From positions 2,550,001 through 2,582,000 of the forward strand of contig NZ_CP053627.1 of the NCBI RefSeq assembly GCF_013177435.1: a stretch of DNA of 32,000 bases, given 5' to 3'. The notes under the pieces are model-generated. The model was not told the DNA's origin. It saw only the letters and a program-made list of their open reading frames with translations, and did no database searches. The position numbers and the translations under genes were made by a program. The stretch's first letter is position 1. Every line of letters begins with the position of its first letter. Below, in pieces: positions 5,430 to 32,000 of this stretch. The DNA comes from Xylella taiwanensis. Lineage in GTDB: Bacteria; Pseudomonadota; Gammaproteobacteria; Xanthomonadales; Xanthomonadaceae.

Positions 5430-7052
<1,623 letters not shown>

Positions 7053-14437: not shown

Positions 14438-17044
14438 ATGTATAAGCATACGACAAAGCTAGCATTCTGTATTTCATCAGTACTTTATTGGGCCGCTTCC
14501 GCAATGGCAGCCTCACCCCCTGACACCGTAACCAAACTGGACACCGTCACCGTCACAGGTTACCGCGCCTCACTGGAGAAGGCGCAGTCGATCAAACGCT
14601 CCACCAATTCGATCGTTGATGCGATCAGCGCCGAGGATATCGGCAAATTTCCAGACACCAATGCTGCCGAATCGTTATCCCATCTACCCGGCATCAGCGT
14701 GGACCGTCAGTTCGGCGAAGGCGAAAAAATCAGCATCAACGGCACCGATCCAGCCCTAAACCGCGTCTTGCTCAACGGCCAAACCATCGCCTCAGGTGAC
14801 TGGGGTGGCAACCCGACCGACACCAGCGGCCGCACCTTCAATTACACCCTACTGTCTCCGGAAATCATCGGTCTGATGGAGGTTTATAAAACACCGGAAG
14901 CGCGCATTGACGAAGGCTCGATCGGCGGCACCGTGATCGTCCATACACGTCAACCGCTGGATCTGCCGAAAAACACCATACGCGGCTCACTCGGCTACAA
15001 CTACAACGACCATTCAAAAAAAAGCAATCCACGCGGCTCAGTATTATGGAGTTGGAAAAACGACAGTGAGAGCTTCGGTGCATTGGTTTCAGCCACCCAC
15101 GACAAACAAGACATTGCACGCGCAGGCATTGAGTTCTTCGGCTATACCACCGGTGCAAATATTTCCCCCAATGCGACCATCACTGGCGACGGCAGCAGTG
15201 CAACAACTGCAAAAATACCGGCTGGCATCAACAGCGCGTTCTTTCAACAAACCCGCGAGCGCAACGGTCTGCAAGGCGCACTCCAGTGGAAGCCGAACGA
15301 GCAAAACGAATTCAACCTGACCGGCATCTACATCAAAGGCAAATACAACAATTTCAGCGAGTCACGCTATATCTGCCCGGCCTGCAACAATGACTTAAAC
15401 AAAGTTTCCACAGCCAATGTACAAAACGGCTACATCACTTCAGCCACGGTCTCAGACGGCACAGCCGGACAGCCTTACGCACAGCTCGATGCGAATTACC
15501 GTATGAGCACCGTCACCACAAAGAGCTTGAATCTGCGCCATAACTGGTCCGGAAACAAATGGGTATTCACGTCCCAGGCTGGTACGACAAAAGCCACTGG
15601 CGGCAAAGATCCCGAATACTTGATGAAGTTTCTGCTGCAAGAAGGCGGATATCGCTTCAATTACGATGGCACAAATACCGGGGTTACTTACGATAACAAC
15701 AGCGCATCCAACTGGGCCCTAAAGAGTGATCAGCAAGCGGGTGGCCTTGAGTACACCAAGACTAACGACCAGGAAAACTATTTCCAGTTCGACGCCGCAC
15801 GCGACCTCAACTGGGGCCCATTAAACAAACTGCAATTCGGCTATAAATACATCGACCATAAGAACAGCCAAACCTCGCGCGGTAACGCACTATTTGCCAA
15901 CCAAGATGTCCTATTAACCGCGTTTAATCCTGGCATGACGCCCGGAGGGCTGTACGACGGACTCGGTGCCAGCGGTGATCTGGTCAACTGGCAGACAGCC
16001 AACCTTCATTCGGTCCTCTCCTATCTCAACACATTGCCGCCAGCCATCTTGGAAACCAAGTCTGACCAGCAATTCAACGTCACAGAAATCACCAATAACC
16101 TGTATACACAGTTGAATTTCGATGCTGGCAAATGGCGCGGCAACATCGGTGTTCGTTACGTGGACACCAAGGACAACATCCTGTACTGGCAAAGCACCAC
16201 AGTGAACGACACCGTCAACTATCGCCCGGTACAAGACTCCAAGCGTTATTCCAAACCGCTACCAAGCCTCAACATTGCCTATGACCTAACCAACGACAGC
16301 GTGCTGCGCTTCTCGGCGGCCCGCGTCATCGCCCGTCCACGTTACGCTGACCTAGCTGGCTCCTTTTCGCTGAACAGTACCTCGGATGATCTCACGGCAA
16401 GCGGCGGCAACCCGAACCTGAAACCCTACCAATCCACCAACTATGACCTGGCCGCTGAGTGGTATTTCGCTCCCTCAAGCATGTTGTCGGCGGAAGCGTT
16501 TTACCGCGACATCAGCTCTTACATCGTCAGCACGACCACCACCGAAACACTCAGCGACCCATCAAACAACATCTTCAACAAAACGTACACCGTCACCCGC
16601 CCAATGAATGCCTCCGGCGCCAAAGTGACCGGCCTTTCGCTGAACTACCAGCACGCATTCGCCTATGGCTTTGGCCTAGCGACGAACTACACCTATGCTC
16701 GATCCAGCTCCAACGATGGTCTGAACCTACCCTACCTGTCCAAGAACACCTACAACGTGATCCCCTATTGGGAACAGGGGCCCTGGGCAGTGCGCCTCAA
16801 CTACAGCTACCGATCAAAGTACTTCACCCAAATCGGACGGCTAAATTCGAAGATTTTCACAGATGCTTACAAGGAACTCGACCTGACCGCCTCTTACAAA
16901 TTTAACGATTGGGTCAGCCTAAGCATCAGCGCCACCAACCTGCTGAATTCAACCTACTACTGGTACAACGAGGTGAAGTACGCCCCGATCGGCATGTACA
17001 AAAATGGCCGTGGCTACCAAGCACAGATGAACTTCAAATTCTGA
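14438..17044 (+). CDS. TonB-dependent outer-membrane receptor
   Basis: 868 aa. It has a signal peptide, the TonB-box-like DTVTVTG, a plug domain (NSIVDAISAEDIGKFPDTNAAESLSHLPGISV) and a beta-barrel ending in a terminal aromatic residue (...QAQMNFKF). Confidence 0.9.
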   Translation: MYKHTTKLAFCISSVLYWAASAMAASPPDTVTKLDTVTVTGYRASLEKAQSIKRSTNSIVDAISAEDIGKFPDTNAAESLSHLPGISVDRQFGEGEKISINGTDPALNRVLLNGQTIASGDWGGNPTDTSGRTFNYTLLSPEIIGLMEVYKTPEARIDEGSIGGTVIVHTRQPLDLPKNTIRGSLGYNYNDHSKKSNPRGSVLWSWKNDSESFGALVSATHDKQDIARAGIEFFGYTTGANISPNATITGDGSSATTAKIPAGINSAFFQQTRERNGLQGALQWKPNEQNEFNLTGIYIKGKYNNFSESRYICPACNNDLNKVSTANVQNGYITSATVSDGTAGQPYAQLDANYRMSTVTTKSLNLRHNWSGNKWVFTSQAGTTKATGGKDPEYLMKFLLQEGGYRFNYDGTNTGVTYDNNSASNWALKSDQQAGGLEYTKTNDQENYFQFDAARDLNWGPLNKLQFGYKYIDHKNSQTSRGNALFANQDVLLTAFNPGMTPGGLYDGLGASGDLVNWQTANLHSVLSYLNTLPPAILETKSDQQFNVTEITNNLYTQLNFDAGKWRGNIGVRYVDTKDNILYWQSTTVNDTVNYRPVQDSKRYSKPLPSLNIAYDLTNDSVLRFSAARVIARPRYADLAGSFSLNSTSDDLTASGGNPNLKPYQSTNYDLAAEWYFAPSSMLSAEAFYRDISSYIVSTTTTETLSDPSNNIFNKTYTVTRPMNASGAKVTGLSLNYQHAFAYGFGLATNYTYARSSSNDGLNLPYLSKNTYNVIPYWEQGPWAVRLNYSYRSKYFTQIGRLNSKIFTDAYKELDLTASYKFNDWVSLSISATNLLNSTYYWYNEVKYAPIGMYKNGRGYQAQMNFKF

Positions 17045-17055
17045 TGCTGTCACCG

Positions 17056-17084
17056 GCGCGCCACTGCTTAAAGTGGCGCGCTTT
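17056..17084 (+). terminator. GC-rich hairpin between the TonB-dependent receptor and fucosidase genes (terminator or attenuator-like)
   Basis: GCGCGCCAC (17056-17064), loop TGCTTAAA, GTGGCGCGC (17073-17081), followed by only TTT. Confidence 0.4.
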
Positions 17085-17137
17085 CCGGGTGCAAGCCGTT
17101 CCAATCAGGGCATCGGAGATCACAGGAGCACCATCCC

Positions 17138-18985
17138 ATGACACTCGACTCCCGTCTTCCCATGGACACATCCAGCCGCGATACCAGAACCACACACCCA
17201 CCCTTAACACACGCACTGGTCCTGCTGCTCACCCTATTGCCGCTGTCCACATTTGCAACCCAAACACCAACCGCAACCACTGCCTCCCCTGAGCAACTCG
17301 ATCAACAGTGGCTGCAAGCCACCGCTCAATACGCGTCTGAACGCAATCATCTCGTACACACTGCACACGATGGTGCAACACACGGACCGTTCCGCCCCGA
17401 CTGGACATCGCTGCAACAATACCGCTCCCCCGATTGGTACAACAACGCAAAGTTCGGCATCTTCATCCACTGGGGTGTCTTCTCCGTCCCCGCATTCGGC
17501 AGTGAGTGGTACTCACGCAACATGTATCAAAAGGGCTCGAAGGAATATCAGCACCATCTTGCCAGCTACGGCCCGCACACCACATTCGGCTACAAAGAGT
17601 TGATACCGCAGTTCACCGCATCCAAGTTTGACCCAAAGGCCTGGGCCAAGCTCTTCAAACAGGCAGGTGCCCGCTATGTGGTCCCAGTGGCCGAACACCA
17701 TGACGGATTTGCGTTGTACGACTCACACCTTTCGGACTGGACCGCAGTAAAGATCGGTCCCAAACGTGATCTGCTTGGCGACCTATCCAAAGCAATCCGA
17801 GCCGAAGGTCTACACTTCGGCCTATCCTCCCACCGCGCCGAACACAATTGGTTTTTTGACGGTGGCCGTCAGTTTGACTCAGATGTCAACGATCCACGCT
17901 ACGCCGATTTATACGGCCCAGCACAGATGCGCTTGGCAGGCAAGAACGACGAAGACGTCGCCAACGACTGGACACCCGTTTCCCAAGCCTGGCTCAACGA
18001 CTGGTTGGCGCGCACGATAGAACTGATCGACCGCTACTCCCCCGAACTGATCTATTTCGACTGGTGGATTGCGCACCCGACATTCCGCAATACACTGCCC
18101 ACCATGCTGGCCTACTACTACAACCACGGCGCAGCTCAACATTCCTGCGGCATCACCATTCAAAACACACCCTCAGCTGAGGGACGCCCACCGCATCACT
18201 CCTTGAAAACCCACAGCAACACCACAGTTCCCGCCACATCGCTTGAGCCCGCCACATCAATCCACGTGACACACCTGACCTCTTCCAGCACACCACCCTC
18301 TCCATGCGGCGTCGTGGTCAACTACAAACTCGGCGCATTCCCTGATGGCGCCGGCACCTTGGACATCGAGCGTGGCCAACTCACTGGCATCCATCCCACC
18401 CACTGGCAAACCGACACCTCAATCAGCAATACCTCCTGGGGATACATCGAAAACGACAGCTATAAGTCACCCGCCTTCATCATCCACATGCTCGCTGACG
18501 TCGTCGCCAAGAACGGCAACTTGCTGCTCAACATCGGTCCACGCGCCGACGGCAGCATCCCAGACAACGAACGCAACATCCTGCTCAACATCGGCACATG
18601 GCTGAACATCAACGGTGAAGCTATCTACGACACGCAACCCTGGCGTACCTATGGCGAAGGTCCCACTGAAGTCGCCAGCGGCACGTTCCAAGACACCAAA
18701 ACCAAACCCTATACCGCGGCAGACTTCCGTTTCACCGTGCACGGCAATTCCCTATACGCGATCGAATTGGGATGGCCGACAAACGGCCACGCAGTGATCC
18801 ACTCCATCAAAGCATCCGACAACGTGTCCAGCGTAACGCTGCTGGCAGACAACCGCACAGTGCCATTTGAACAACACAACGACGGCCTGCACCTGCATCT
18901 GCCCAACACGCCAGTAGGCGAACATGCCTACGTCTTCCGTATCAATAGGTACTCCCATTCATCAATACGGGACAAGACACCATAA
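17138..18985 (+). CDS. Alpha-L-fucosidase, glycoside hydrolase family 29, with an atypical internal low-complexity segment
   Basis: 615 aa. GH29 motifs are FGIFIHWGVFSVPAFGSEWYSRNMY, VAEHHDGFALYDS, ELIYFDWW and LLLNIGPRADGSIP. The N-terminus is signal-like. Confidence 0.85.
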   Translation: MTLDSRLPMDTSSRDTRTTHPPLTHALVLLLTLLPLSTFATQTPTATTASPEQLDQQWLQATAQYASERNHLVHTAHDGATHGPFRPDWTSLQQYRSPDWYNNAKFGIFIHWGVFSVPAFGSEWYSRNMYQKGSKEYQHHLASYGPHTTFGYKELIPQFTASKFDPKAWAKLFKQAGARYVVPVAEHHDGFALYDSHLSDWTAVKIGPKRDLLGDLSKAIRAEGLHFGLSSHRAEHNWFFDGGRQFDSDVNDPRYADLYGPAQMRLAGKNDEDVANDWTPVSQAWLNDWLARTIELIDRYSPELIYFDWWIAHPTFRNTLPTMLAYYYNHGAAQHSCGITIQNTPSAEGRPPHHSLKTHSNTTVPATSLEPATSIHVTHLTSSSTPPSPCGVVVNYKLGAFPDGAGTLDIERGQLTGIHPTHWQTDTSISNTSWGYIENDSYKSPAFIIHMLADVVAKNGNLLLNIGPRADGSIPDNERNILLNIGTWLNINGEAIYDTQPWRTYGEGPTEVASGTFQDTKTKPYTAADFRFTVHGNSLYAIELGWPTNGHAVIHSIKASDNVSSVTLLADNRTVPFEQHNDGLHLHLPNTPVGEHAYVFRINRYSHSSIRDKTP

Positions 18986-19794
18986 ACCACGCACAGCGTC
19001 GGCAACCAGCTGCGTGACATCACTATAGACGTCACCAACATCAACCTTGAGAGCACCCCATCAAAAGTGGGAAAACATCCAACACACATCACCCACCACA
19101 TTCATGACCGCTGCAGCGCATGATGCACGTCAAGTCAATCAAACCGGCGCAAACAAATGACATCCACCACCCTTCTCCGACCGATATTTCTACCTGCTGC
19201 ATCGCTCTGCCCAGAGCTGATACATCACACCCATATACGTTAAAGAGCACATGCAACGCATTGCCATAGATGGCACATACCGGGACTGCTTACCCTCAGC
19301 ACCCCCTAAAAGGCGATCCAACAGCAGCACCATGTTCTCAACAGGGCGTGTGCTCAAAAGTCTGTACTTGACTCCTACGCATTCCAAAGCGCACACAGCA
19401 CAGTGATGCTGGATGGCGATCACCGCAGGCTGCGCAATCCACCCATCAATACAGCGCATGGCATGACAACAAGATGGCGATACATCCAAAGAGAACAATA
19501 TTAAGGACACATTCCCCGTGAACAGCGCACACAGCCCCTTTCACTGACCAGACAATGCCCACAGGCGAGCAGACAAGCCACCAGACACGTTCGCCCAACG
19601 CACACCTTAACATCCCGATATGCCCATTCAACTTCGCTGTTCTTTAGAACGCACCATAGAGTTGGATCACTCCTTAAAAAAATTAAAACTCCTACGCACA
19701 GGACGCATTCACCACCCTCATATCAACCTGTTAAACCCGTCACGACAGCCCCTTCATTAAACCCATCACCCTGCAACAACAAGCAGAGCACTGA

Positions 19795-19898: not shown

Positions 19899-20251
19899 GG
19901 GGGTGCACTGGTTTCGACGGGGGTCACAAAATCGCTTGGTGCATGCCGAGGGGGCCGCTTTCCTCGTAAATCCAGCAGCACACTTATAGTTGCCAACGAA
20001 GACAACTACGCTCTGGCCGCTTAAGGCCTAAGCCTCGAAACTGCTTGTATCCGTGCTCGCAGCGTAGAGTCATCATCACGGAATCGCTGATGCTGGCCGT
20101 CTGCCCACCATCCGTTAAATCCAGCAGACTGGTTTCCGGGTGCGCTTTGCCTGTCGTGCTGCCCGGCGGCAAGATTTAACGGCAGGATAAGCATGTAGGG
20201 CCGGGGATGGAGTACTTTCGGACGGCGGTTCGATTCCGCCCACCTCCACCA
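19899..20251 (+). ncRNA. ssrA: tmRNA (transfer-messenger RNA)
   Basis: 5' GGGGGTGCACTGGTTTCGACGGGGG and 3' GGACGGCGGTTCGATTCCGCCCACCTCCACCA form the tRNA-like acceptor and T arm. The internal tag ORF GCC AAC GAA GAC AAC TAC GCT CTG GCC GCT TAA (19992-20024) encodes ANEDNYALAA. Confidence 0.92.
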
Positions 20252-20289: not shown

Positions 20290-20623
20290 CTTGCCAGATC
20301 ACCCCGGTTCCCGCGTGTTCGCGGGGATTCGTACGGAAGCCTGCGGACTTTGGCATCCGGCCCCATTCTAGGCCGCCGTCCTTTTTCTCCTGAATGCACC
20401 CGAAGTCCGCAAAGGCCACAAACACGACCATTACAGAGCAACGGTTTACACGTGGACAAATCAAACGCTTGGATCGAAGCATTGCCCAACCAAACGAAAC
20501 CACACCGCTCACGCAGACACCACAGCGGTTTAAAAATCGACACGACCGCCCTCTTGGTGCATGGCATGGGCGGGCCGCGTCGGCCAGATTTAGTTTTTTT
20601 ACTCAATGCAATGCATGATTTTT

Positions 20624-21157
20624 CTAACGCACCTCACTTGGAATCTGCGTCTCTGGCTTACGGTATGAATGCAGTTTTCTTTCAAATTCCCAGGGCTTTA
20701 AAGGATGCGTTTTACCATGCATTTCTTTATAAACCCATTGTTCGGTTTTTTTAATGGCATCAAGAAATTCTTGATCTAATGTCCACGCCTTAGAGTGAAT
20801 CACCCAGGGATTTTCTCGATATAAAGCAACCGTGACGTCGAAGTACTGTTCTACATTTTTTGCAGCCTCATATCGGGCGATGAGGCTGTCAATCTCTGGC
20901 AAAAAATAACACAGCGCTAATCCCAGTTCCGGCACCGTCATCCGGGTGTCCGCATCAAGGGTTTGACCAGATTGCTCATTCAGAAGCAGATCAATGCTAA
21001 TAACAAAAATAAAGTGCTTTGATGAGAAGCGTGCTTCTTTCACTCTTCCGTGTGGATGTACAGGGTGACTTTCAACAAAGCCAAATTCAGCAAACTTGCG
21101 ATGGCATGCGACTTGTTTTAACCAGTCTTTTTCCACTGTGGGGGATGGATTGCTCAT
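20624..21157 (-). CDS. Orphan CDI immunity protein, type 1 (diverged paralog of 27876-28433)
   Basis: 177 aa, mostly identical by eye to the immunity ORF following the resident cdiA. Its ATG overlaps the upstream toxin-fragment stop (ATGA). Confidence 0.7.
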   Translation of the reverse strand: MSNPSPTVEKDWLKQVACHRKFAEFGFVESHPVHPHGRVKEARFSSKHFIFVISIDLLLNEQSGQTLDADTRMTVPELGLALCYFLPEIDSLIARYEAAKNVEQYFDVTVALYRENPWVIHSKAWTLDQEFLDAIKKTEQWVYKEMHGKTHPLKPWEFERKLHSYRKPETQIPSEVR

Positions 21158-21470
21158 AGTTTCACCATTTTTCCTGTAGCTGCGTCATAAACATATCCAT
21201 TCTTTTTGAGATACTCGATTTCACGTCCAAAGCCGGTCAGGGTTCCATCTGGTCCATAAATGTTTCCTGATTTCTTTCGATCTGGATTAAAAGGGGCTTT
21301 GTTTGGCGTTGTTGCCAGCACAATGTCATCTCCTCTTTTTATAGCGGCATCAAGGAAGGGTTTATTGACCTGTTGCCAGAATTTCTCTGGGCCTAATGCG
21401 GCGTACAGACTATCTGGGGTATTCAGTAAATTAAACGAACCAGGTTGTGTGGGGCCATCAATGATCATTC
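21154..21470 (-). CDS. Orphan cdiA-CT fragment, type 1 toxin domain (no start codon or pretoxin region)
   Basis: MIIDGPTQPGSFNLLNTPDSLYAALGPEKFWQQVNKPFLDAAIKRGDDIVLATTPN... is colinear with the last ~105 aa of the resident CdiA (28430-28745). Homology begins abruptly near 21470. Confidence 0.65.
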
Positions 21471-21471
21471 G

Positions 21472-21637
21472 GGCGACGCTAATTAACAACACACCCTATT
21501 TTATTCAACAGCCTTGAATAAAACCCCAGGATGGGTATTCACCGTCACACTCGCACCGGCGCCGCCCCCTTTAGGGACGCGGCACCAGTGGATTAACACC
21601 GCTCAGCTCAAGAGGCAGTGCAGTCAATGAGGCATCA
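21472..21637. repeat. Cassette-junction repeat, copy A
   Basis: About 160 bp, shared with 25117-25279 and 26019-26178. In every copy it sits immediately 3' of a type-2 immunity gene. Confidence 0.8.
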
Positions 21638-22039
21638 TCAAAAACACCAATCGTAATAATCCTCACCATGATCTCCTACTCCTTTCGATACCCAGACGGC
21701 AACGAATGGACACTCGTCGATCACTAACCAAATTCCATTCAATAGCGCTTCATCCGAAGCAGGAAAACAGCTTCCAAACATCTCTAGCAACGCCTCGGTG
21801 GGACCCTCCATGATAAGTCCGTCCTTTCTATTACCAAGCTTGAAACGACCCTCATCAAGTAATTTCCCGATGATCAACAAGAAATCGTTTTTTCTTTCCT
21901 CAAACGAGTCCAGATCCACTTGAGTATCAGAAACTCCATGTGCCCTCCCTACATACTCCCAAAGAATATGCAAAGGCTGTCCTTCACTGTCACAAATAAA
22001 ATCTATCTGCTCTTGGATTAACACAAAATCACCTATCAC
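21638..22039 (-). CDS. CDI immunity protein, type 2 (copy d)
   Basis: 133 aa: MIGDFVLIQEQIDF...SFEERKNDF...GKLLDEG...FPASDEAL...CPFVAVWV...GEDYYDWCF. Its start overlaps the stop of the upstream toxin fragment. Confidence 0.7.
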   Translation of the reverse strand: MIGDFVLIQEQIDFICDSEGQPLHILWEYVGRAHGVSDTQVDLDSFEERKNDFLLIIGKLLDEGRFKLGNRKDGLIMEGPTEALLEMFGSCFPASDEALLNGIWLVIDECPFVAVWVSKGVGDHGEDYYDWCF

Positions 22040-22398
22040 CTAAATTTAAGTTCGACTGTTTTATTTGTAATCTCCATCAAAGAAGGATTATTTGCTATAT
22101 CAATCGTCCACCTCGCTTTAGTCGCTGCTTCTGAAGAAGACACAGACCTCAAACGCACACTGGTTCCATCACTGAGTTTAGCCAGATAAACCCCTGGGCT
22201 TACCTGATTTAAAGGCACATCTCCGGCTAATTGCTGTGCATAGTTTTTAATATCCTGATCCGTTAAGACCTGGGAATCAAATACCTTAGTCGTGCCGCTC
22301 CTATTACTTCCCCCTCTCACTTTGGGGTCATACGGGGTGGCTTTGACATTGACATTGCTTCGATTCAACAGCGATGCTTGCAGCAACATCGCATGCAA
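22036..22398 (-). CDS. Orphan cdiA-CT fragment, type 2 toxin domain (copy d)
   Basis: ...PYDPKVRGGSNRSGTTKVFDSQVLTDQDIKNYAQQLAGDVPLNQVSPGVYLAKLSDGTSVRLRSVSSSEAATKARWTIDI...VELKFR is homologous to the C-terminus of 26589-27804. It lacks a pretoxin region, and only TTG and internal ATG starts are available. Confidence 0.65.
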   Translation of the reverse strand: MHAMLLQASLLNRSNVNVKATPYDPKVRGGSNRSGTTKVFDSQVLTDQDIKNYAQQLAGDVPLNQVSPGVYLAKLSDGTSVRLRSVSSSEAATKARWTIDIANNPSLMEITNKTVELKFR

Positions 22399-22468
22399 GC
22401 ACCTAAAAGAAGAAAATCCATCGCGTTTAATGATTTCACTGACGCAGTGTCAAGCCAATCAAACAACC

Positions 22469-22860
22469 TCACGTCCACTCATAATAATCTTCTCCATTTT
22501 CGCCTTCTCCTTTAAACACCCATACCGCTCCTGCCGGACACTCATCTGTAAAAAACCAAATTCCGACTTCGAGTCCTTCATCTGAAGCAGGAAACGCTTT
22601 TCTAAATAGATCGACTAATTCTTCGATGGTGCCCGTAATAAATTCACCTTTTTTGGCAAGCTTCAGCTTGCCCTCATCAAGTAATTTACCCAATAAAAAC
22701 AGGAAATCGTTTTTTCTTTCCTCAAACGAGTCCGGATCTACTTGCGCAGCAGAAACTCCATAGGCATTCCCTATATAACTCCAAGATAAATTAACCCCCC
22801 CCCCAAATCCTCATAAATAAAATCTATCTGTTCTTGAGTCAACATCACATCACCTCTCAC
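22469..22860 (-). pseudogene. CDI immunity protein, type 2 (copy c), frameshifted at a G10 homopolymer
   Basis: The GTG start at 22860 gives VRGDVMLTQEQIDFIYEDLGGG and then a stop. After the tract, the other frame reads VNLSWSYIGNAYGVSAAQVDPDSFEERKNDFLFLLGKLLDEG... through to the stop at 22469. One extra G restores exact colinearity with copy b. Confidence 0.75.
22795..22804. repeat. Homopolymer tract, C10 on the plus strand and G10 on the coding strand
   Basis: Read directly from the sequence: ttaa cccccccccc aaatcc. Confidence 0.95.
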
Positions 22861-23186
22861 CTAAATTTAAGTTCAACTCTTTGATTTGTAATTTCTCGCA
22901 AAGAAGGATTATCTTCTATATCAATCGTCCACCTCGCTTTAGTCGCTGCTTCTGAAGAAGACACAGACCTCAAACGCACACTGGTTCCATCACTGAGTTT
23001 AGCCAGATAAACCCCTGGGCTGACCTGCTTTAAAGGCACATCTCCGGCTAATTGCTGCGCGTAGTTTTTAATATCCTGATCAGTTAAGGCCTCTGATTTA
23101 AACACCTTCACATTACCCGCTTTATTACTTCCCCCTTTCACTTTGGGGTCATACGGGATGGCTTTGAACTCCACGCCTGCAATCAC
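22857..23186 (-). CDS. Orphan cdiA-CT fragment, type 2 toxin domain (copy c)
   Basis: IAGVEFKAIPYDPKVKGGSNKAGNVKVFKSEALTDQDIKNYAQQLAGDVPLKQVSPGVYLAKLSDGTSVRLRSVSSS...VELKFR. There is no pretoxin region. Confidence 0.65.
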   Translation of the reverse strand: MIAGVEFKAIPYDPKVKGGSNKAGNVKVFKSEALTDQDIKNYAQQLAGDVPLKQVSPGVYLAKLSDGTSVRLRSVSSSEAATKARWTIDIEDNPSLREITNQRVELKFR

Positions 23187-23250
23187 TCATTCATGATTGG
23201 GCTGATTTAACTAGCCGCTGGCAACACCATATCACCAGCGGCCTTGATGC

Positions 23251-23673
23251 TTATCCAAACAAATTACGCAAAGATTTCTTGACCTCGTCCACTGTGATTA
23301 TATCTTCGCACTCTTCGTAATCATCATAATCCTCGTAATCCTCGGGTCTGTTGTAATCATAATCTATATTGATTTTACCTGTGGGATAGACAGTAAATGT
23401 CAAACCCCAGATACGATGCCCAGTGCACTTTATAAGATCATCTCTAAGATATAAAACAGCAAAGTAACTACGAGTACTAAAACCATCAGAATCACCGATA
23501 TTTTTCTTATCCACACACCCGTCTTTTAATAACCAACATTCAGATGAAACCAATTTTGAATAAACCTCATATTTACCCACCACCTCATCCCAAGCACGCT
23601 CACCTGCAAAGGCTATAAGATCTTCTCCAATTGTTTGATAAGCCTCTTCTACATTTTGAAATTCATGATTCAT
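23251..23673 (-). CDS. Putative immunity protein for the nuclease orphan toxin (acidic C-terminal region)
   Basis: 140 aa. Its ATG overlaps the toxin stop (ATGA at 23670-23673). The C-terminal region is acidic (NRPEDYEDYDDYEECED). It may be YezG/DUF600-like, but that is a weak impression only. Confidence 0.6.
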   Translation of the reverse strand: MNHEFQNVEEAYQTIGEDLIAFAGERAWDEVVGKYEVYSKLVSSECWLLKDGCVDKKNIGDSDGFSTRSYFAVLYLRDDLIKCTGHRIWGLTFTVYPTGKINIDYDYNRPEDYEDYDDYEECEDIITVDEVKKSLRNLFG

Positions 23674-25039
23674 TGGTTAAATTCCCTTGAAATCTTTTTC
23701 CCGTCAATCTCTGCTTTAACCACAAACTTATTCGGCCTCACACCACCAGTGGCCGGATATAAAACATCAATATTTACACTCACGGACTTACCGTCCTGCA
23801 ATGCTTGATGCAACTGTTGTTCCATTTTTCTCCACCCGCTTCGGTTCAAAATCTCTGCCTGCGGCACGAGATTGATCCTATCACCAGCTCCGCCTAGGCT
23901 GGAGGCAATCAAATGCCCGCCTTCATCGCCCAGTTCGCCACATTTACCGACACAGCGTTGCTGGTAGGTATTGCGATCCATCTTTTTTGAAATCAAATCT
24001 GCTTGCACATTTTTTACTCGGCCTGCTGTGTCTGTCACATACCCATGACCGTTATCCAACACATAGGCTGTCTTAGGTTCCAGAGAACCATTGACCGCTT
24101 TATCCCAACCAGTGTTCTTGCTGCCTGTGGTGATTTGTTTGACCTGGCTGACATCGGCCCGCTTGGCTAACTGATCAGTCAATGCCTGACGCCGGGCGAC
24201 AACATCGGTTGCACCGGAGATCCAGCGACCGCCGATTTTGGCCGCTCTCACGCCGTATTTGGCCAGGTTGCCGATCATCACCGAGGCGATGTATTCCTCG
24301 CCTTTTTCTAGGGCCACTTGTTCTATGGTCTTTTCCCCTGAACGAATCGCTTTGATGTCTTGCCAGGCGTCATAGGCGGTCAGGCCTTTATCGGCTAACC
24401 AAAGGGCACCAATGAGCACGGGGACGAAGACCGCGTTGTTTTCGGTTTCCAGCCGGGCTGCTGCACTGCTCACCGCCGCTTCGCCACCGGCGGCGGCGGT
24501 GATGCCGGCCACCAGGCTGGTGACGGTATCGGTGCGCTGTTGTTTTTCCGCGGCGCTCAGGCTGGCGACGTCGGCGCCGGTGGTGCGGTCTAGTAGGTTA
24601 TTGATGACCACGGCCGCCGCCGCGCCAGTCGCGCCGGCGCCGCACCCTTGGCCTTGGGCGGCAGCACCAGCGCAGCCCAGCAGGCCTTGCAGGGCCGCAC
24701 GGGCCGGTTCGCTGTCTAGTTGGTCGGCCAGTGTTTTGACTTGGCTGGCGCCTAGGCTTTGCAGGTAGTTAACCGCAGCGCCTTGAAGCATTTGGGTGGC
24801 GCTGCCGGTCACGTGGCTGCCTGCGGCCAGGTTCAGGGCGGTCACAATCGTTCTGCCGGTGCCGCCTACGTCCCAGGTGGCGTTGTCTTGGAGGCGCTGT
24901 TGTAGGGCCGCGATTAGGGCCGGGTCACGTTGGTGTTCGGGTTTGGCGCGTTCGCTGTCTAGGGCCTGTTGGGTTTGGGTGGCTTCTTGAGCACGGTTGT
25001 TAATAAAGGTGCCGACTTCGCGCTGTAGGCCGCTGACGA
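23670..25039 (-). CDS. Orphan cdiA-CT module: pretoxin region with ETENN motif, a shared ~75 aa linker, and an Endonuclease_NS_2-like (His-Me finger) nuclease toxin
   Basis: The frame stays open upstream of the ORF-track start (a GTG at 24845) to about 25039, where homology to cdiA stops. ETENN is at 24435-24449. The C-terminal domain has DEGGHLIASSLGGAGDRINLVPQAEILN, which matches the D.GHLIA...GG...N.NL.PQ...N nuclease signature. Confidence 0.8.
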
Positions 25040-25116
25040 CGTTTTATGACTTCCCGCTTTATATCCGGATAGGGTTGATTTTAGATTTAAACCAAAAATA
25101 ATCCATTGATGATTTA

Positions 25117-25279
25117 GGCGACGCGACCCAAACACACCCTACTTTATTCAACAGCCTTGAATAAAACACCTTGATGGGTATTCACCGTCACACTCGCACC
25201 GGCACCACCCCCTTAGGGACGCTGCACCGGTGCAGCAACGCCGCTCACCTCAAGAGGCAGTGCAATTACTGAGGCATCA
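25117..25279. repeat. Cassette-junction repeat, copy B
   Basis: Shared with copies A and C. It contains the hairpin TTATTCAA-CAGCC-TTGAATAA (25144-25164) and the 16-bp palindrome GCTGCACCGGTGCAGC (25221-25236). Confidence 0.8.
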
Positions 25280-25684
25280 TCAAAAACACCACCCGTAATC
25301 ATCCTCATCAGGTTCTCCTTCTACTTCTCTTGTAAACAACCAGGCTGCAACGAATGGACAATCTGCAAAGAACCAAAGTCCTGCCTCTAGCGCTTCATCC
25401 GAAGCAGGAAAACATTGCCTGAACCGCTCCACCAATTCCTCGGTGGGACCCTCTATGATAACCTCGTCCTTTCTATGACCAAGCTTAAGCTTGCCCTCAT
25501 CAAGTAATTTCCCCAATGCAAAGAAGAAATCGTTTCTTCTTTCCTCAAACGAGTTCGGATCTACATCCACAGAAGAAACTCCATGCACCTCCCCTACATA
25601 ATCCCAAACATGATGAAACCCCGCCCTTAAATCCTCATAAATAAAATCTATCTGCTCTTGAGTTAACACAAAATCACCTATCAT
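25280..25684 (-). CDS. CDI immunity protein, type 2 (copy b)
   Basis: 134 aa: MIGDFVLTQEQIDFIYEDL...SFEERRNDF...GKLLDEGKLKLG...FPASDEAL...CPFVAAW...DYGWCF. Confidence 0.7.
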   Translation of the reverse strand: MIGDFVLTQEQIDFIYEDLRAGFHHVWDYVGEVHGVSSVDVDPNSFEERRNDFFFALGKLLDEGKLKLGHRKDEVIIEGPTEELVERFRQCFPASDEALEAGLWFFADCPFVAAWLFTREVEGEPDEDDYGWCF

Positions 25685-25959
25685 CTAAATTTAAGTTCAA
25701 CTTTTCGATTTGTAATTTCTCTCAAAGAAGGATTATTTTCTATAACAACTGTCCATCTTGCTCCTGTCACTTCATTTGAAGAAGAAACAGACCTCAAATG
25801 TAAAATGGTTCCATCATTCAGGTCGGCCCTATAAATCCCTGGCCTCATCTCCTTTAAAGGGACGTCTCCTGCCAATTCCTGTGCATAGTTTTTAATTTTC
25901 TGGTCGGTTAAGGCCTGAGAATCAAATACCTTCACATGACCCGCTTTATTACTTCCCCC
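25681..25959 (-). CDS. Orphan cdiA-CT fragment, type 2 toxin domain (copy b, the most truncated and most divergent)
   Basis: GGSNKAGHVKVFDSQALTDQKIKNYAQELAGDVPLKEMRPGIYRADLNDGTILHLRSVSSSNEVTGARWTVVIENNPSLREITNRKVELKFR. Homology starts at the GGSN motif. Confidence 0.6.
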   Translation of the reverse strand, partial: GGSNKAGHVKVFDSQALTDQKIKNYAQELAGDVPLKEMRPGIYRADLNDGTILHLRSVSSSNEVTGARWTVVIENNPSLREITNRKVELKFR

Positions 25960-26018
25960 TTCGGAGCAGGGCGAGATATGTTTTAGATTGATACCAGAAA
26001 TAAACTATTTATTATTTA

Positions 26019-26178
26019 GGCGACACCAATCAAAAACACTATAAATTTATTCAACAACGTTTAAATAAAACACCAGGATAGACGGCAATACCCGCACCGG
26101 CGCCGCCCCCTTTAGGGACACGGCACGGGTGCAGCAACACCGCTCACCTCAAGAGGCAGTGCAATTACTGAAGCATCA
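26019..26178. repeat. Cassette-junction repeat, copy C
   Basis: Shared with copies A and B, and more diverged in the AT-rich hairpin part. Confidence 0.8.
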
Positions 26179-26592
26179 TCAAAAACACCAATCGTAATCA
26201 TCCTCACCATGTTCTCCTACGCCTTTTAATACCCAGACGGCAACGAATGGACAATCTGTAAAGAACCAGAGTCCTCCCACTTCCTGATCAATCTCTTCAT
26301 CTGAAGCAGGAAAACATTGCCTGAATCGCTCCACTAGCTCCTCGATGGAACCCTCCAAGATACGCTCGTCCTTTCTATGACCAAGCTTAAGGTGACCCTC
26401 ATCCATTAATTTCCCGATGATAAACAGGAAATCGTTTTTTCTTTCCTCAAATGAATCCGGCTCCGCTTGATCAGTAGAAAGTCCATACGCATCCCCTATA
26501 TGAAACCAAAGAAAATGCAAAGGCTCCCCTGCCCTGTCACTGTCAGCAATAAAATCTATCTGCTCTTGGGTTAACACAAAATCACCTATCAC
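26179..26592 (-). CDS. CDI immunity protein, type 2 (copy a)
   Basis: 137 aa. Its GTG start overlaps the toxin stop (GTGA). It has the same conserved N- and C-terminal blocks as copies b to d. Confidence 0.7.
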   Translation of the reverse strand: MIGDFVLTQEQIDFIADSDRAGEPLHFLWFHIGDAYGLSTDQAEPDSFEERKNDFLFIIGKLMDEGHLKLGHRKDERILEGSIEELVERFRQCFPASDEEIDQEVGGLWFFTDCPFVAVWVLKGVGEHGEDDYDWCF

Positions 26593-27804
26593 CTAAATTT
26601 AAGTTCAACAGATCTTTGATTTACAACACCCTTCAGAGATGGATTGTCTAATACTTGAATAGTCCACCTCGCTGCGGTCTCTTTTTGTGAAGAAGAAACA
26701 GACCTCAAATGCACCCTAGTTCCATCACTGAGTTTAGCCATATAAACACCTGGACTCACCTGCTTTAAAGGGACATCTCCGGCTAATTGCTGTGCATAGT
26801 CTCTGATGTTCTGATCGGTTAACTTCTGCGAATCCAACACCTTAGTCGTCCCACTCCTATTACTTCCCCCTGAAGAGCCGCGCGGGGTGATTTTTACCTC
26901 TATGCCTGCAACGACTAATTCATCCTTTGAGTTACGCTTGCCAAAGAAATCTTTGAACTCGTCAAATCGCTTTTTTTGCTGCTGCGCCAGAACACTGCCA
27001 AGCGGCTTTGAGGTTAAATCCGGCCCTTTAGGATTGTGTGCAATTTGATCAAGGGCTTGTTTCTCGGCTTTGGCAATGTCATCGGCTTTGCCGGAGATCC
27101 AGCGACCGCCGATTTTGGCCGCTCTCACGCCGTATTTGGCCAGGTTGCCGATCATCACCGAGGCGATGTATTCCTCGCCTTTTTCTAGGGCCACTTGTTC
27201 TATGGTCTTTTCCCCTGAACGAATCGCTTTGATGTCTTGCCAGGCGTCATAGGCGGTCAGGCCTTTATCGGCTAACCAAAGGGCCCCAATAAGCACGGGG
27301 ACGAAGACCGCGTTGTTTTCGGTTTCTAGGCGGGCTGCTGCACTGCTCACCGCCGCGTCGCCACCGGCGGCAGCGGTGATGCCGGCCACCAGGCTGGTGA
27401 CGGTATCGGTGCGCTGTTGTTTTTCCGCGGCGCTCAGGCTGGCGACGTCGGCGCCGGTGGCGCGGTCCAGTAGGTTATTGATGACCACGGCCGCCGCCGC
27501 GCCAGTCGCGCCGGCGCCGCACCCTTGGCCTTGGGCGGCAGCACCAGCGCAGCCCAGCAGGCCTTGCAGGGCCGCACGGGCTGGTTCGCTGTCTAGTTGG
27601 TCGGCCAGTGTTTTGACTTGGCTGGCGCCTAGGCTTTGCAGGTAGTTGACCGCAGCGCCTTGAAGCATTTGGGTGGCGCTGCCGGTCACGTGGCTGCCGG
27701 CGGCCAGGTTCAGGGCGGTCACAATCGTTCTGCCGGTGCCGCCTACGTCCCAAGTGGCGTTGTCTTGGAGGCGTTGTTGTAGGGCCGCGATCAGGGCCGG
27801 GTCA
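26589..27804 (-). CDS. Orphan cdiA-CT module: pretoxin region with ETENN motif, the shared linker, and a type 2 toxin domain (copy a, the only copy still fused to a pretoxin region)
   Basis: Near-identical to 24214-24927 through ...GGRWISG, then diverges into ...VAGIEVKITPRGSSGGSNRSGTTKVLDSQKLTDQNIRDYAQQLAGDVPLKQVSPGVYMAKLSDGTRVHLRSVSSS...VELKFR. ETENN is at 27312-27326. Homology to cdiA upstream ends at 27804. Confidence 0.8.
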
Positions 27805-27875
27805 GGCTACCGCCGCCCTACCCTTGGGCGGCAGCGCAGCTCAGATTTAGTTCTTTTACTCAATGCATGATTTTT

Positions 27876-28433
27876 CTAACGCACCTCACTTGGAATCTGC
27901 GTCTCTGGCTTACGGTATGAATGCAGCCTTCTTTTAAATTCCCAGCGCTTTAAAGGTCGCATTCCACCCCGCATTTCGTTATAAACCCATTGTTGAGTTT
28001 TTTTAATGGCATCAAGAAATTCTTGATCTAATGTCCACGCCTTGGAGTGAATCACCCAGGGATTTTCTCGATATAAAGCAACCGTGACGTCGAAGTACTG
28101 CTCTATATTGTCTTTACCCTCATATCGATTACCCTCATATCGAGCGATGAGGGTGTCAATCTCTGGCAAAAAATAACACAGCGCTAATCCCAGTTCCGGC
28201 ACCGTCATCCGGGTGTCCGCATCAAGGGTTTGTCCATATGGCTCATTCAGAAGCAGATCAATGCCAATGACAAAAATGAAATGCTTTGATGAAAACTCGG
28301 CTTCTTTCAGTCTTCCCCTTGGATCTACAGGATAACTTTCAACAAAACCAAACTCAGCAAACTTGCGATGACATTCAACTTGTTTTAACCAGTATTTTTC
28401 CACTGTTTCCACTGTGAAAGATTGATTGCTCAT
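27876..28433 (-). CDS. cdiI: CDI immunity protein, type 1 (cognate partner of the resident CdiA-CT)
   Basis: 185 aa. Its ATG overlaps the cdiA stop (ATGA at 28430-28433). The gene is AT-rich compared with cdiA. Confidence 0.75.
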   Translation of the reverse strand: MSNQSFTVETVEKYWLKQVECHRKFAEFGFVESYPVDPRGRLKEAEFSSKHFIFVIGIDLLLNEPYGQTLDADTRMTVPELGLALCYFLPEIDTLIARYEGNRYEGKDNIEQYFDVTVALYRENPWVIHSKAWTLDQEFLDAIKKTQQWVYNEMRGGMRPLKRWEFKRRLHSYRKPETQIPSEVR

Positions 28434-31400
28434 GGCTTCACCATTTTTCCTGTAGCTGCGTCATAAACATATCCATGTTTTCCGAGATACTCCATTTCAC
28501 GGCCAAAGCCAGTCAGGGTTCCATCTAGTCTATAAATATTTCCTAATTCCTTGGAGTTTGGAATAAAGCGGTCGTAGTTTGGCGTTGTTGCCAGCACAAT
28601 GTCATCTCCTCTTTTTATAGCGGCATCAAGGAAGGGTTTATTGACCTGTTGCCAGAATTTCTCTGGGCCTAATGCGGCGTACAGACTATCTGGGGTATTC
28701 AGTAAATTAAACGAGCCAGGTTGTGTGGGGCCATCAATAATCATTGACTTGGGCAAGCTCAGTTCCGTGATGATGCGATCAGTGTCATTTTTAAAGGTTC
28801 CGAGCACCGTGGTGGTCTTATCAGGATTAGCCTTGATGACCACACCACTGGTTGTTCTGATTTCTGCCGGCAAGAGGTAAGCGGCACCATCTCGATAGAA
28901 GTGCTGAGCTTGTTGCGCACTGGCAATCGCCTCCGCACGGCCCAGCTGATAGGCCTTAGACGCGGCCATGCCTTCCAAGACATCTTTACTCAGATTGATG
29001 CCTACGTTGGTAAGGGCCGCGCCGCCTTTGGCCACACCGCCCACCCCCAAGACAACTGAACCAATATCCCAGACCAGGGTGCCAAGATCGCGACCGTATT
29101 GCTCGGCATGCTGATTACCTCCAACGGTCAGGGCCGTCTGCATGCGATCAATCTTGTGATCTATCTCCTGAAAAACGCTGTCGCTTAATTGCTGGCGTAC
29201 TTCTGGGTTGGTGATCAGCTCCTTCAGGCCACGAAGGCCAGCCATGGGGTTGGAGAGAAATTGCACCAGTCCTTGAATATCGCTGAGGCCTGATTCGGCT
29301 AAGCCTTTGACTAATCCAACGCCCGTTAATCCTTCTTGTCTTGCATAAATGGAACCCCATTTGGCCGCCACTTGCAGCGATTCCAAGAGGCCATTGGCCG
29401 CTGCAAGCTCCTGATTCATTTGCGCGTTTTGCTGGGTGGCAAGCCAGTTGTTATCCAGCGCCGCAGTGGCTGCATGGGTGGCGCTGGCTGCATGGGCATC
29501 GCCGGCGCTGGCAATGCCCGTGACCAGGGAAAGAATCAGGTTGCGTTTTGCTTCACGCTGCTGGGCGGTTTCATCGGGCGTGGTGGCGCTGAATAAACCG
29601 GTGAGTACGCTGGAGGCCGCCGCGCCCGTGGCCCCGCTGCCGCAGCCTTGCTGGCTGGCCGCAGCACCGGCGCACGCCACGATGGCATGCAAGGCCGCGT
29701 GTAAGGGCGTGCCTTCGGTGAGTTGCCCGTTGGCGACCAGGTGACCGATATAGGAGGCGCCTTGTTGCTGTACGTAGTTCACCAGCATGGTGTTAGCTAC
29801 CTCGCGCGTGGCAGCGCTGGCATTGCCACTGATGCCGGCGGCTAAGGCGGTAGTGATTTGCCGATAGGTGCCGCCGGGGGCCCAAGTGGCGTTGTCTTGG
29901 AGGCGCTGTTGTAGGGCCGCGATCAGGGCCGGGTCACGTTGGTGTTCGGGTTTGGCGCGTTCGCTGTCTAGGGCCTGTTGGGTTTGGGTGGCTTCTTGAG
30001 CGCGGTTGTTAATAAAGGTGCCGACTTCGCGCTGTAGGCCGCTGACGATGGTAAAGCCGGCTTTGATCTCTTGTTCGTTGAAGATCGGCTGCAGGGTGTG
30101 GCTGGTGTCTTGGCCGGTGAGCACGTCGTGGTTGAGGGCGGCGATGGTCTCGGCGGCGGTCTGCCCGGTGCGGGCCTGTTGGCCGGCTTGGTCACGGATG
30201 GTGATGGCGCCAGCGCTGATGCCGCTTTGGGTGGTGCTGTGGCTGGCGTCGCGGGCGTTGATGACGCCGGGGGGAGCCACGCTCACGCCGTGATAGCCCG
30301 GCAGTTGGGTGCCAGGCACCTGTTCTGCGGTGGCGGCGCGGCCTTGTTGGTCGGTCCCCACGCCGCCGGGGCCGCGGCTGTAGCCGCCGCCTAGGCTCAC
30401 GTGGCTGGCGCTGTAGGAGGCGTGGTTGTCCAGCGCTGTTTCGCTCAGGGTGGCGGTGTCCAGGACGTTCAGGCCCGCTTGGGCGGCGGCGGCGCTGGAG
30501 GTGATCAGGCCGCCCATCAGGGTGGTGTGCCCGCCCACGGTCACTTGAAAGCCCCCATCACCAGCCAGCAGGCCGCTTTGTTCGGTAACGCTGCTGTAGT
30601 CGCTGCGGATGGTGTGATGGTTGAGGTGGGCGCTGCCAGAAACACCAACCCCAGCGGTGAAGCTGCCGCCGATGCTTTGATCTTTGCTGCGGTACTGGTG
30701 GGTGTCTTGGAGGCTTTCGATGTCTAGGTTGCCGCCAATGGTGGCCATCAGCTGGGGGGCGCTGGCCACGGCGCCGCGTAGGATGGTGTTGCCCCCAGAT
30801 TCCAGCACCAGCAAGCGACCGCCCTGCACGCGGGTGTTGGTCCAGGTGACATCGGTACTGGCGCCGCTGCCTTTGGAGGCGCTGCCCTGGACGGTGAAGC
30901 CGGCGCTGGCGCCGCCGGTGCCCAGGTTCACCGCCACTCCCACGCCGTGACCGCTGCCGCGGCTGTCGCGGGTCATCTGTTCGGTGTTTTTGGCCGCCGC
31001 CATGACAAGGTCGCCATCGGCTTTGAGGTGGGTGACGTTGCCAGCGCTGATCTGGGTGCCGCTCAGGGTCAGGGTGGACTGTTCACCGGCGCCGGTGGCG
31101 CTGATGGTGATGTTGCCGCCGGCGTGGAGGGTGGATGCAACGGCGCGGTCGCTGTGGGTGGTGGTGGTGCTGTGGTATTGGGTGGTGCCCAGGGTCGCCG
31201 TGAGGTTTACGCCGCCCAGGACCTTGGGGTCGCTGCCGATGGCATCTACGGCGTTTCTGGCGGCCAGGGCGGCGGTGATTCCCGCTAGGGCCTGGAGGCG
31301 GGGGGTGGAGGTCCGCCCGGCGGCCGCTGTCATGTGCTGGGTGGTTTGGAAGGCCGCAATCGCTGGATTGCTCAGGCTCGCGGTCAGGCCGCTTTGGCGA

Positions 31401-32000
31401 AACTTAGTTTCCTGAGTGGTGTGCTCGGTCTCACGGGCTTCGACAATGGCTACTTTTTTGCCGTGGATGTCAATGTTGCCTTCCGGGGCAATCAGGTCGA
31501 TGCCAGGGGCCTGGACGGCGCCTTTGCTGGAGGAGATGAAGATGTTGCCATTGAGGGCGGCCACGGTGTTGCCGGTCAAGTAGGTGGCGTGGTGGCTGCC
31601 TTGTTGGCTGGCTTTTTGGGAGCCCACGGTGAAGCCGGCGCCAGAACCGAACACGCCGCTGCGGCGCTGGGTGGTGCTGTAGCTGGAGCTGTGGGTGTTT
31701 TGGGCGCCGAACATGCCCACGCCGTGGGTGCCTTCAATGTGGGGGTTGCCATCGGCTATAAAGTCGGTGCCAACGCTGTAAACCTTGTCGCCTGTGACGG
31801 TGACCTTGGTGCCGCCCAGGACGCTGCCCAGGGCAATGGTGTCTTGGCTGCTGGCGGTGCTGTGGCTACGGCTGGAGCCCCATAGGCCGCTGCGCCGGCT
31901 GGTGCGTTCTTCTTGGCCGCTGCGCCGTTCTTGGCCGGCCACCAGGGCCACGGTGCCGTCAGCAGAACTGATGTTCAGCTTGCCTTGGCGGCTGTCCAGG
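28430..32000 (-). CDS. cdiA: CdiA / filamentous-hemagglutinin family exoprotein, C-terminal ~1190 codons (5' end lies outside the window)
   Basis: The frame is open to nt 32000 (...DSRQGKLNISSADGTVALVAGQ...). It contains Gly/Ser/Thr-rich FHA-type repeats, a pretoxin region ending in an LDNN motif (29447-29458), and then a ~338 aa variable CT. Confidence 0.88.
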   Translation of the reverse strand, partial: LDSRQGKLNISSADGTVALVAGQERRSGQEERTSRRSGLWGSSRSHSTASSQDTIALGSVLGGTKVTVTGDKVYSVGTDFIADGNPHIEGTHGVGMFGAQNTHSSSYSTTQRRSGVFGSGAGFTVGSQKASQQGSHHATYLTGNTVAALNGNIFISSSKGAVQAPGIDLIAPEGNIDIHGKKVAIVEARETEHTTQETKFRQSGLTASLSNPAIAAFQTTQHMTAAAGRTSTPRLQALAGITAALAARNAVDAIGSDPKVLGGVNLTATLGTTQYHSTTTTHSDRAVASTLHAGGNITISATGAGEQSTLTLSGTQISAGNVTHLKADGDLVMAAAKNTEQMTRDSRGSGHGVGVAVNLGTGGASAGFTVQGSASKGSGASTDVTWTNTRVQGGRLLVLESGGNTILRGAVASAPQLMATIGGNLDIESLQDTHQYRSKDQSIGGSFTAGVGVSGSAHLNHHTIRSDYSSVTEQSGLLAGDGGFQVTVGGHTTLMGGLITSSAAAAQAGLNVLDTATLSETALDNHASYSASHVSLGGGYSRGPGGVGTDQQGRAATAEQVPGTQLPGYHGVSVAPPGVINARDASHSTTQSGISAGAITIRDQAGQQARTGQTAAETIAALNHDVLTGQDTSHTLQPIFNEQEIKAGFTIVSGLQREVGTFINNRAQEATQTQQALDSERAKPEHQRDPALIAALQQRLQDNATWAPGGTYRQITTALAAGISGNASAATREVANTMLVNYVQQQGASYIGHLVANGQLTEGTPLHAALHAIVACAGAAASQQGCGSGATGAAASSVLTGLFSATTPDETAQQREAKRNLILSLVTGIASAGDAHAASATHAATAALDNNWLATQQNAQMNQELAAANGLLESLQVAAKWGSIYARQEGLTGVGLVKGLAESGLSDIQGLVQFLSNPMAGLRGLKELITNPEVRQQLSDSVFQEIDHKIDRMQTALTVGGNQHAEQYGRDLGTLVWDIGSVVLGVGGVAKGGAALTNVGINLSKDVLEGMAASKAYQLGRAEAIASAQQAQHFYRDGAAYLLPAEIRTTSGVVIKANPDKTTTVLGTFKNDTDRIITELSLPKSMIIDGPTQPGSFNLLNTPDSLYAALGPEKFWQQVNKPFLDAAIKRGDDIVLATTPNYDRFIPNSKELGNIYRLDGTLTGFGREMEYLGKHGYVYDAATGKMVKP

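Follow-up and report, generated by a model that had tools for sequence, protein, structure and literature searches.

A probable contact-dependent growth inhibition locus with six orphan toxin/immunity cassettes in Xylella taiwanensis

Identity and layout of the array

The pear pathogen Xylella taiwanensis carries, within the 32,000-nt window analysed here (NCBI RefSeq assembly GCF_013177435.1, contig NZ_CP053627.1, positions 2,550,001 to 2,582,000 of the forward strand), a run of toxin and immunity genes that we read as the 3′ end of a contact-dependent growth inhibition (CDI) locus, comprising the tail of a cdiA gene, its cognate immunity gene and six orphan cassettes. We consider this reading highly probable, at roughly 85%. 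The open reading frame (ORF) layout places the last 1,190 codons of cdiA and an immunity gene on the minus strand, followed by six toxin-fragment/immunity pairs of three types. An earlier note on this DNA, made from the letters alone, had set out the same order, and every element it listed lies where it had been placed. Coordinates are those of the window, and all features of the array are on the minus strand.

The gene is identified as cdiA because its product matches Fil_haemagg_2, carries ESPR and two-partner secretion (TPS) domains at its N-terminus, and has a C-terminal toxin region (CT) whose N-terminal domain is homologous to PDB 7vmc_B. The 3′ part within the window, from 28430 to beyond 32000, stays open to the window edge and matches Fil_haemagg_2 at E=5e-40. 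The full-length gene has about 3,670 codons, the remainder lying beyond the window (L001/L002, where L001 is the CP087686.1 sequence covering the rest of cdiA); the ESPR and TPS domains are found there, outside the window, on a 452/456-aa N-terminal product of the same gene.

Self-BLASTN recovers the three cassette types together with their boundaries. The two type 1 units (20567-21469 and 27825-28745) share 87.7% nucleotide identity, and the four type 2 units are 74-79% identical in pairwise comparison. Read directly, each of the seven toxin/immunity junctions contains a 4-nt overlap, which is ATGA at cdiA/immunity 1, toxin 2b/immunity 2b, orphan 3/immunity 3 and toxin 1′/immunity 1′, and GTGA at orphan 2/immunity 2a, toxin 2c/immunity 2c and toxin 2d/immunity 2d. 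The overlap that the earlier note had described at every junction is thus present in 7/7 cases, with one qualification: for the four type 2 immunity genes, public annotation prefers a GTG start that lies 15 nt further in and follows AGGTGA, so that the overlapping start is firm for types 1, 3 and 1′ only and is one of two options for the four type 2 genes.

Composition sets the modules apart from the gene they follow, as had also been noticed. The GC fraction is 0.66 for the body of cdiA, 0.62-0.68 for the pretoxin regions, 0.37-0.50 for toxin tips and immunity genes, and 0.545 for the remaining window; the tips and immunity genes are of foreign composition, at 37-50% GC versus 66% for the cdiA body. 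Between the cassettes of the array there are no insertion sequence (IS), transposase or integrase genes, and NCBIfam gives no match for any module. The arrangement is base-for-base identical in an independent complete genome, save for one G in a tract within immunity 2c, and the array is therefore not an assembly artefact.

Toxin and immunity modules

The resident CdiA ends in a pretoxin region, here called PT_A (29447-29866), which closes with ALDNN (29447-29461), a presumptive equivalent of the VENN motif. It is followed by an entry-domain-like N-terminal part of the CT (28746-29446), which phmmer aligns at 1.5e-12 to residues 50-184 of 7vmc_B, a solved E. coli CdiA-CT deposited as 'tRNA nuclease CdiA'; the likeness is to the N-terminal part of that structure. 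The resident CT is bipartite, with an entry-domain-like part followed by the type 1 tip, which forms its last ~110 residues (28430-28745) and falls in no Pfam family. Homologues of the tip make up 1,404 50%-identity clusters at E<=1e-3, are always C-terminal, and also end full ESPR/TPS/FHA proteins of, for example, 2,639 and 4,049 aa; the family is widespread and uncurated. Immunity 1 (185 aa; 27876-28433) overlaps the cdiA stop by its ATGA, has no Pfam, NCBIfam or PDB match, and occurs in 22 X. taiwanensis contigs. At the far end of the array, the type 1 fragment 1′ (21154-21492, with homology from 21469) is 81% identical to the resident tip in amino acids and 87.7% in nucleotides, and immunity 1′ (177 aa; 20624-21157), joined to it by the ATGA overlap, is 81.6% identical to immunity 1 with a dN/dS of 0.42.

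Type 2 is represented by one long orphan and three short fragments. Orphan 2 (26589-27804; ORF 26589-27722, with the frame open to 27803) consists of a 70-nt cdiA piece, a pretoxin region of a second kind (PT_B), a shared CT N-domain and toxin 2a, with ETENN at 27312-27326 and a DUF637 score of 19.9 bits that lies below the cut-off. The fragments are 2b (25681-25973, with an 84-aa ORF at 25681-25935 and homology from 25973), 2c (22857-23186) and 2d (22036-22398). Each is followed by an immunity gene of the DUF596 (PF04591) kind, for which the gathering cut-off is 25 bits: immunity 2a (26179-26592) matches at 3.4e-11 and 43.6 bits and also resembles PDB 2o5h (1.6e-4), immunity 2b (25280-25684) matches at 4.6e-6 and 27.2 bits, and the C-terminal part of the frameshifted immunity 2c (22469-22860) matches at 1.9e-16 and 60.4 bits. 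Immunity 2d (21638-22039) gives no Pfam match at E<=0.01, but is a DUF596 relative, being 56-66% identical to 2a, 2b and 2c, and the same gene has a precomputed PF04591 hit at L001 16410-16796. Zhang et al. (2012, PMC3482391) list DUF596 as Imm-NMB0513, among the immunity families of polymorphic toxins, and DUF596 genes have been reported as non-cognate cdiI genes that accumulate in Stenotrophomonas (PMC11893273). The type 2 toxin itself occurs mostly in Xylella, as judged from one word-index search.

In NCBI and UniRef, the type 2 toxin fragments (22036-23186 and 25681-25935) are labelled 'DUF769 domain-containing protein'. DUF769 was rejected as their identity, as PF05590 gives no match to E<=10, while 272-aa lipoproteins encoded at a second locus of this genome (L036; CP087686.1 130285-150614) match it at 2e-114; the label on the fragments appears to have been mis-propagated from neighbouring genes. 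Separately, a GC-rich hairpin of -21 to -24 kcal/mol, with no U tract, lies 50-80 nt after immunity 2a, 2b and 2d (26095-26132, 25197-25233 and ~21565), inside a conserved spacer of about 200 nt.

The type 3 cassette is the one whose toxin can be assigned to a known family. Orphan 3 (23670-25039; ORF 23670-24845, with the frame open to 25037) comprises a 182-nt cdiA piece, PT_B with ETENN at 24435-24449, the shared CT N-domain and an Endonuclea_NS_2 domain (PF13930; E=3.1e-27, 95.8 bits against a cut-off of 27). Over residues 256-387 it matches EssD, a type VII secretion system toxin (8guo_B; 3.8e-18), which upholds the earlier call of a nuclease and indicates an EssD-like Endonuclea_NS_2 enzyme of the EssD/YeeF-type ββα-Me kind. 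Immunity 3 (140 aa; 23251-23673) is joined to it by ATGA and shows only a sub-threshold YezG-like match (E=0.056). Across the array, the family searches that the earlier note had proposed match Fil_haemagg_2, Endonuclea_NS_2 and DUF596, with toxins 1 and 2 in no Pfam family.

Toxin switching and the proposed mechanism

Relevant to any exchange of toxins is a segment of cdiA at 29867-30048, ending at the codons ...QDNATW, that recurs, by BLASTN and in-frame translation, where each of the two long orphans begins. It is matched by orphan 3 over 182 nt (24858-25039; 96.2% identical by self-BLASTN) and by orphan 2 over 70 nt (27735-27804; 92.9% identical). In both orphans the frame is open and in register with cdiA, the translations are identical, and divergence sets in right after ...QDNATW. 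Because the frames run in register through near-identical segments, toxin switching by homologous recombination is directly possible, and the idea of a reservoir for switching put forward in the earlier note gains sequence support; 29867-30048 is the likely crossover substrate.

Beyond this segment, the resident PT_A represents another allele, about 75% identical to the pretoxin region of the orphans over the sole alignable 85 nt. Orphans 2 and 3 share a stretch of 725 nt with each other (24203-24927 and 27080-27804; 97.5% identical), corresponding to the pretoxin region ending in ETENN plus a CT N-domain of ~75 residues, and their toxins diverge after ...RWISG. No such 5′ homology is present in the four short fragments, which retain just the final 84-110 codons of a toxin of type 2 or type 1; these can contribute immunity genes only.

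In the mechanism that we propose, a CdiA-type exoprotein would end in the type 1 toxin, with the producer protected by the immunity protein from the overlapping gene. The orphan immunity genes, if transcribed, would protect the cell against neighbours deploying those toxin variants. A single crossover between cdiA 29867-30048 and the 5′ end of orphan 2 or 3 would delete the cassettes lying between and leave cdiA in frame but with its pretoxin region, toxin and immunity set replaced. The array would grow through successive displacement, together with exchange with the second CDI locus of the genome. Gene anatomy, homologies, frame compatibility and variation between strains and loci are observed directly, while secretion, toxicity, protection and actual switching are what we infer.

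Counter-evidence and alternative explanations

Several observations weigh against a working CDI locus, some of them concerning the recognition of its parts and others its function. Neither the canonical VENN motif nor the PT-VENN Pfam domain shows up in the pretoxin regions; only ALDNN in the resident gene and ETENN in the orphans are seen, at the point where conservation ends, and DUF637 reaches 19.8-19.9 bits, under a cut-off of 26.6. Neither family nor fold assigns an activity to toxin types 1 and 2, as AlphaFold2 models of the two (pLDDT 84 and 75, respectively) find no PDB match below E=0.4. The weak HigB2 and RCL-like matches of these models were not used to propose a fold.

A further difficulty is the partner transporter. 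The earlier note would have given up its reading had there been no cdiB or TPS domain upstream of position 32000. That case does not arise, as the TPS domain is there along with ESPR. The 10 kb upstream of the two 5′ copies of cdiA in X. taiwanensis (L005 and L006, contig ends of GCA_021206295.1) contain no ShlB/POTRA (cdiB) gene, an unlinked copy not having been searched for. Nor is cdiB found upstream of the homologous cdiA in X. fastidiosa Ann-1, whereas relatives in Stenotrophomonas, Mycetohabitans and Duganella (L007, L012 and L015) carry it directly upstream. Secretion must depend on a putative unlinked TpsB.

The 5′ region of cdiA exists in these two copies, which show no difference over a span that opens 473 nt before the start codon and closes at a C tract in the gene. 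Their upstream contexts differ, with a type I restriction-modification island in L005 and housekeeping genes in L006, and neither includes cdiB. Both copies are compatible with the window locus, as the two contigs stop at the C tract and are identical up to it.

That C tract bears on whether the resident toxin is made as one protein. A run of C10 just after the TPS domain (L001 343-352, ~6.1 kb beyond the right edge of the window) frameshifts cdiA in CP087686.1, splitting it into a 456-aa and a 3,225-aa product, and so the resident toxin as sequenced may not be exported, and the 'resident' cdiA is not demonstrably active. In CP011800.1, the same tract is C9 and leaves a single open frame of ~3,670 codons, and a third assembly (GCA_021206295.1) has two draft contigs that stop exactly within it. 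Within the array, a G10 tract (C on the plus strand) at 22795-22804 breaks immunity 2c and accounts for the frameshift that the earlier note had reported. With 11 or 8 G in the run, the frame would again encode a DUF596 protein of 130 aa, and the tract has 9 G in the other complete genome, neither 9 nor 10 being in frame. Over 20.5 kb compared, the two complete X. taiwanensis genomes differ at three positions, namely one single-nucleotide polymorphism and the two long homopolymers; these differences in tract length could reflect slippage or homopolymer sequencing error. Expression signals add little: 12 promoter-like sites in the array compare with 9.8 +/- 3.2 in shuffled sequences, which is no excess, and terminator-like sites are likewise at chance level against shuffles.

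One alternative is that the locus is a decaying graveyard, in which cdiA is a pseudogene and the cassettes are recombination debris without a present role in immunity or switching. The frameshifts in cdiA of CP087686.1 and in immunity 2c, the absence of promoter excess and of a linked cdiB, and a stop codon in the X. fastidiosa Ann-1 gene (L037, CP006696.1, positions 10001-17600), where cdiA is cut by TAA after 395 codons and resumes in another frame for 2,121 codons, all fit it. We nevertheless think it improbable. Immunity ORFs are intact in six of seven cases, and the cdiA of the other X. taiwanensis genome, differing by one C, is intact as well. dN/dS is below 1 in all pairs, at 0.31-0.84 for the paralogous immunity genes and 0.33-0.57 for the toxin tips, values compatible with retained coding constraint without being proof of present function. 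The orphan frames are open and in register with cdiA, and such arrays are maintained at two loci here and across the genus.

A more far-reaching proposal is that the Xylella 'anti-virulence haemagglutinin adhesins' are CDI effectors switched by homopolymer slippage, working with an unlinked TpsB and forming a phase-variable toxin and immunity repertoire. If this were true, the weapon (cdiA C9/C10) and single shields (the immunity 2c G tract) would go on and off stochastically within a clonal xylem population; we consider it improbable. A conserved C tract acting as a frameshift hot spot in X. fastidiosa is ruled out for strain Ann-1, in which the break is the TAA codon.

Far less likely is an expansion of the adhesin family, with extra haemagglutinin copies (homologues of PD1792 and PD2118) serving aggregation or virulence dosage. 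In the published X. taiwanensis genome, 12 haemagglutinin copies were counted and treated as a copy-number expansion of the family, with its meaning unknown (PMC8176220), and the source databases name the fragments 'hemagglutinin'. However, the orphans of the array have no signal peptide or TPS domain and have lost nearly all FHA repeats, orphans 2 and 3 giving no FHA domain match at all. What they retain is the pretoxin region and the toxin end; behind each fragment stands a small gene from an immunity family, and one of the fragments is a nuclease. The '12 haemagglutinin copies' are thus, by their sequence, probably for the most part orphan CDI toxin fragments with immunity genes, and not extra adhesins. 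Chromosomal type II toxin-antitoxin modules that adjoin a haemagglutinin gene by chance would share the small, tightly coupled toxin/antidote pairs with 4-nt overlaps, but can practically be dismissed, in that the toxin gene comes first in order, the toxins are 3′ remnants that run on without a break from cdiA pretoxin sequence, homologues of the type 1 tip form the C-terminal ends of TPS proteins, and no toxin-antitoxin family is matched in Pfam.

Comparison with other loci and known systems

The second CDI array of the same genome (L036, positions 1-19000) is longer, and holds a cdiA with a GHSRG lipase-like CT, five tandem genes for 272-aa DUF769 lipoproteins, a nuclease orphan of 982 aa and about nine further fragment/DUF596 pairs. 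The DUF769 lipoproteins look like periplasmic immunity proteins; they and the lipase-like CT are absent from the window array. Otherwise, the window array can be broken down into three blocks, each collinear with a part of L036 and sharing 84-99% nucleotide identity with it. The resident cdiA body matches the 982-aa orphan at 99.3% over 1,707 nt, and a 436-aa orphan shares 98.9% identity with the resident pretoxin plus entry region. The collinear blocks imply that the two loci exchange sequence.

In X. fastidiosa, strains carry 6-8 DUF596 genes in ~9 kb after a 3,442-3,539-aa haemagglutinin, with a DUF596 gene directly after the full-length CdiA (3,442 and 3,539 aa). Together with the longer L036, this means that the window array is not unusually dense for the genus. 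The strain comparison that had been suggested finds cassette content variable among X. fastidiosa strains at the homologous locus, and the two X. taiwanensis genomes near-identical. The HxfA/HxfB-family loci of X. fastidiosa (L032-L035) and L036 follow the plan of the window array, in which a 3,100-3,500-aa ESPR/TPS/FHA protein is succeeded by 6-14 toxin-fragment/DUF596 pairs and by long orphans that include an Endonuclea_NS_2 remnant. They differ in position, in that these arrays adjoin a rhomboid gene, while the window array adjoins ssrA.

Orphan cdiA-CT/cdiI modules as such are not new, their primary description reportedly being that of Poole et al. in 2011. The earlier note had rightly called them a described phenomenon: they are textbook material from Enterobacteria (E. 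coli EC93 and EC869, Yersinia and Dickeya), where they lie downstream of cdiBAI and are proposed to be replaceable toxin tips (PMC7662968). The phenomenon is routine in Xylella, and the locus is mechanistically nothing new for the CDI orphan-module paradigm. In both settings, 3′ fragments of cdiA without a start or TPS domain stand in tandem, each with its immunity gene behind it, and some enterobacterial orphans likewise keep cdiA sequence upstream of the VENN-equivalent motif, a homology that offers a recombination route to toxin replacement. The Xylella array differs from the enterobacterial ones in having ALDNN or ETENN instead of VENN, in lacking an adjacent cdiB, in the absence of IS, transposase or integrase genes between its cassettes, and in sharing cassettes with a second locus in the same genome. 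Its orphans carry a whole divergent pretoxin region, so that a swap would replace pretoxin and CT together.

The CDI loci of the Stenotrophomonas maltophilia complex resemble the Xylella locus in a TPS domain that is 58-62% identical and in the accumulation of non-cognate DUF596 copies (PMC11893273), but there cdiB lies directly upstream, whereas it is not linked in Xylella. Outside this circle, Neisseria meningitidis tpsA loci carry downstream tpsC cassettes with intervening ORFs of the DUF596/NMB0513 family, and tpsB adjoins tpsA. The family link comes from PDB 2o5h and PMC3482391. They share with the Xylella array the immunity family and the repeated truncated tpsA 3′ cassettes with a small immunity ORF each; they differ in genus, in toxin set and in the adjacent tpsB.

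A literature search found no publication describing the Xylella arrays as orphan CDI arrays. Should our reading be correct, the anti-virulence adhesin family of X. fastidiosa would be part of a system for competition between bacteria whose immunity repertoires are large and vary from strain to strain; this may bear on strain exclusion, on co-infection in xylem and insect vectors, and on biocontrol strains. It also flags two toxin domains, types 1 and 2, for which there is no curated family and no solved fold.

Genomic setting

On its downstream side, the array is bounded by the tmRNA gene ssrA (19899-20251, plus strand; Rfam RF00023, 195.8 bits), for which ARAGORN gives the tag peptide ANEDNYALAA. 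The array starts about 370 bp past this gene, and that flank, with tmRNA and housekeeping genes, contains no cdiB. Although ssrA is a classic site for island insertion, a repeat of the tmRNA 3′ end, as an island att site would have, is absent from the loci searched (L005, L006 and L036). Window positions 1-19,000 hold chromosomal genes, namely those for an M28 peptidase, a GH5 cellulase, gltD, gltB, proC, a TonB-dependent receptor and an alpha-L-fucosidase, and 14,125 bases compared between the window and X. taiwanensis CP087686.1 are 100% identical. A further homopolymer, a C9 tract, lies in this flank at 13838-13846, in intergenic sequence about 590 nt upstream of the TonB-dependent receptor gene (14438-17044).

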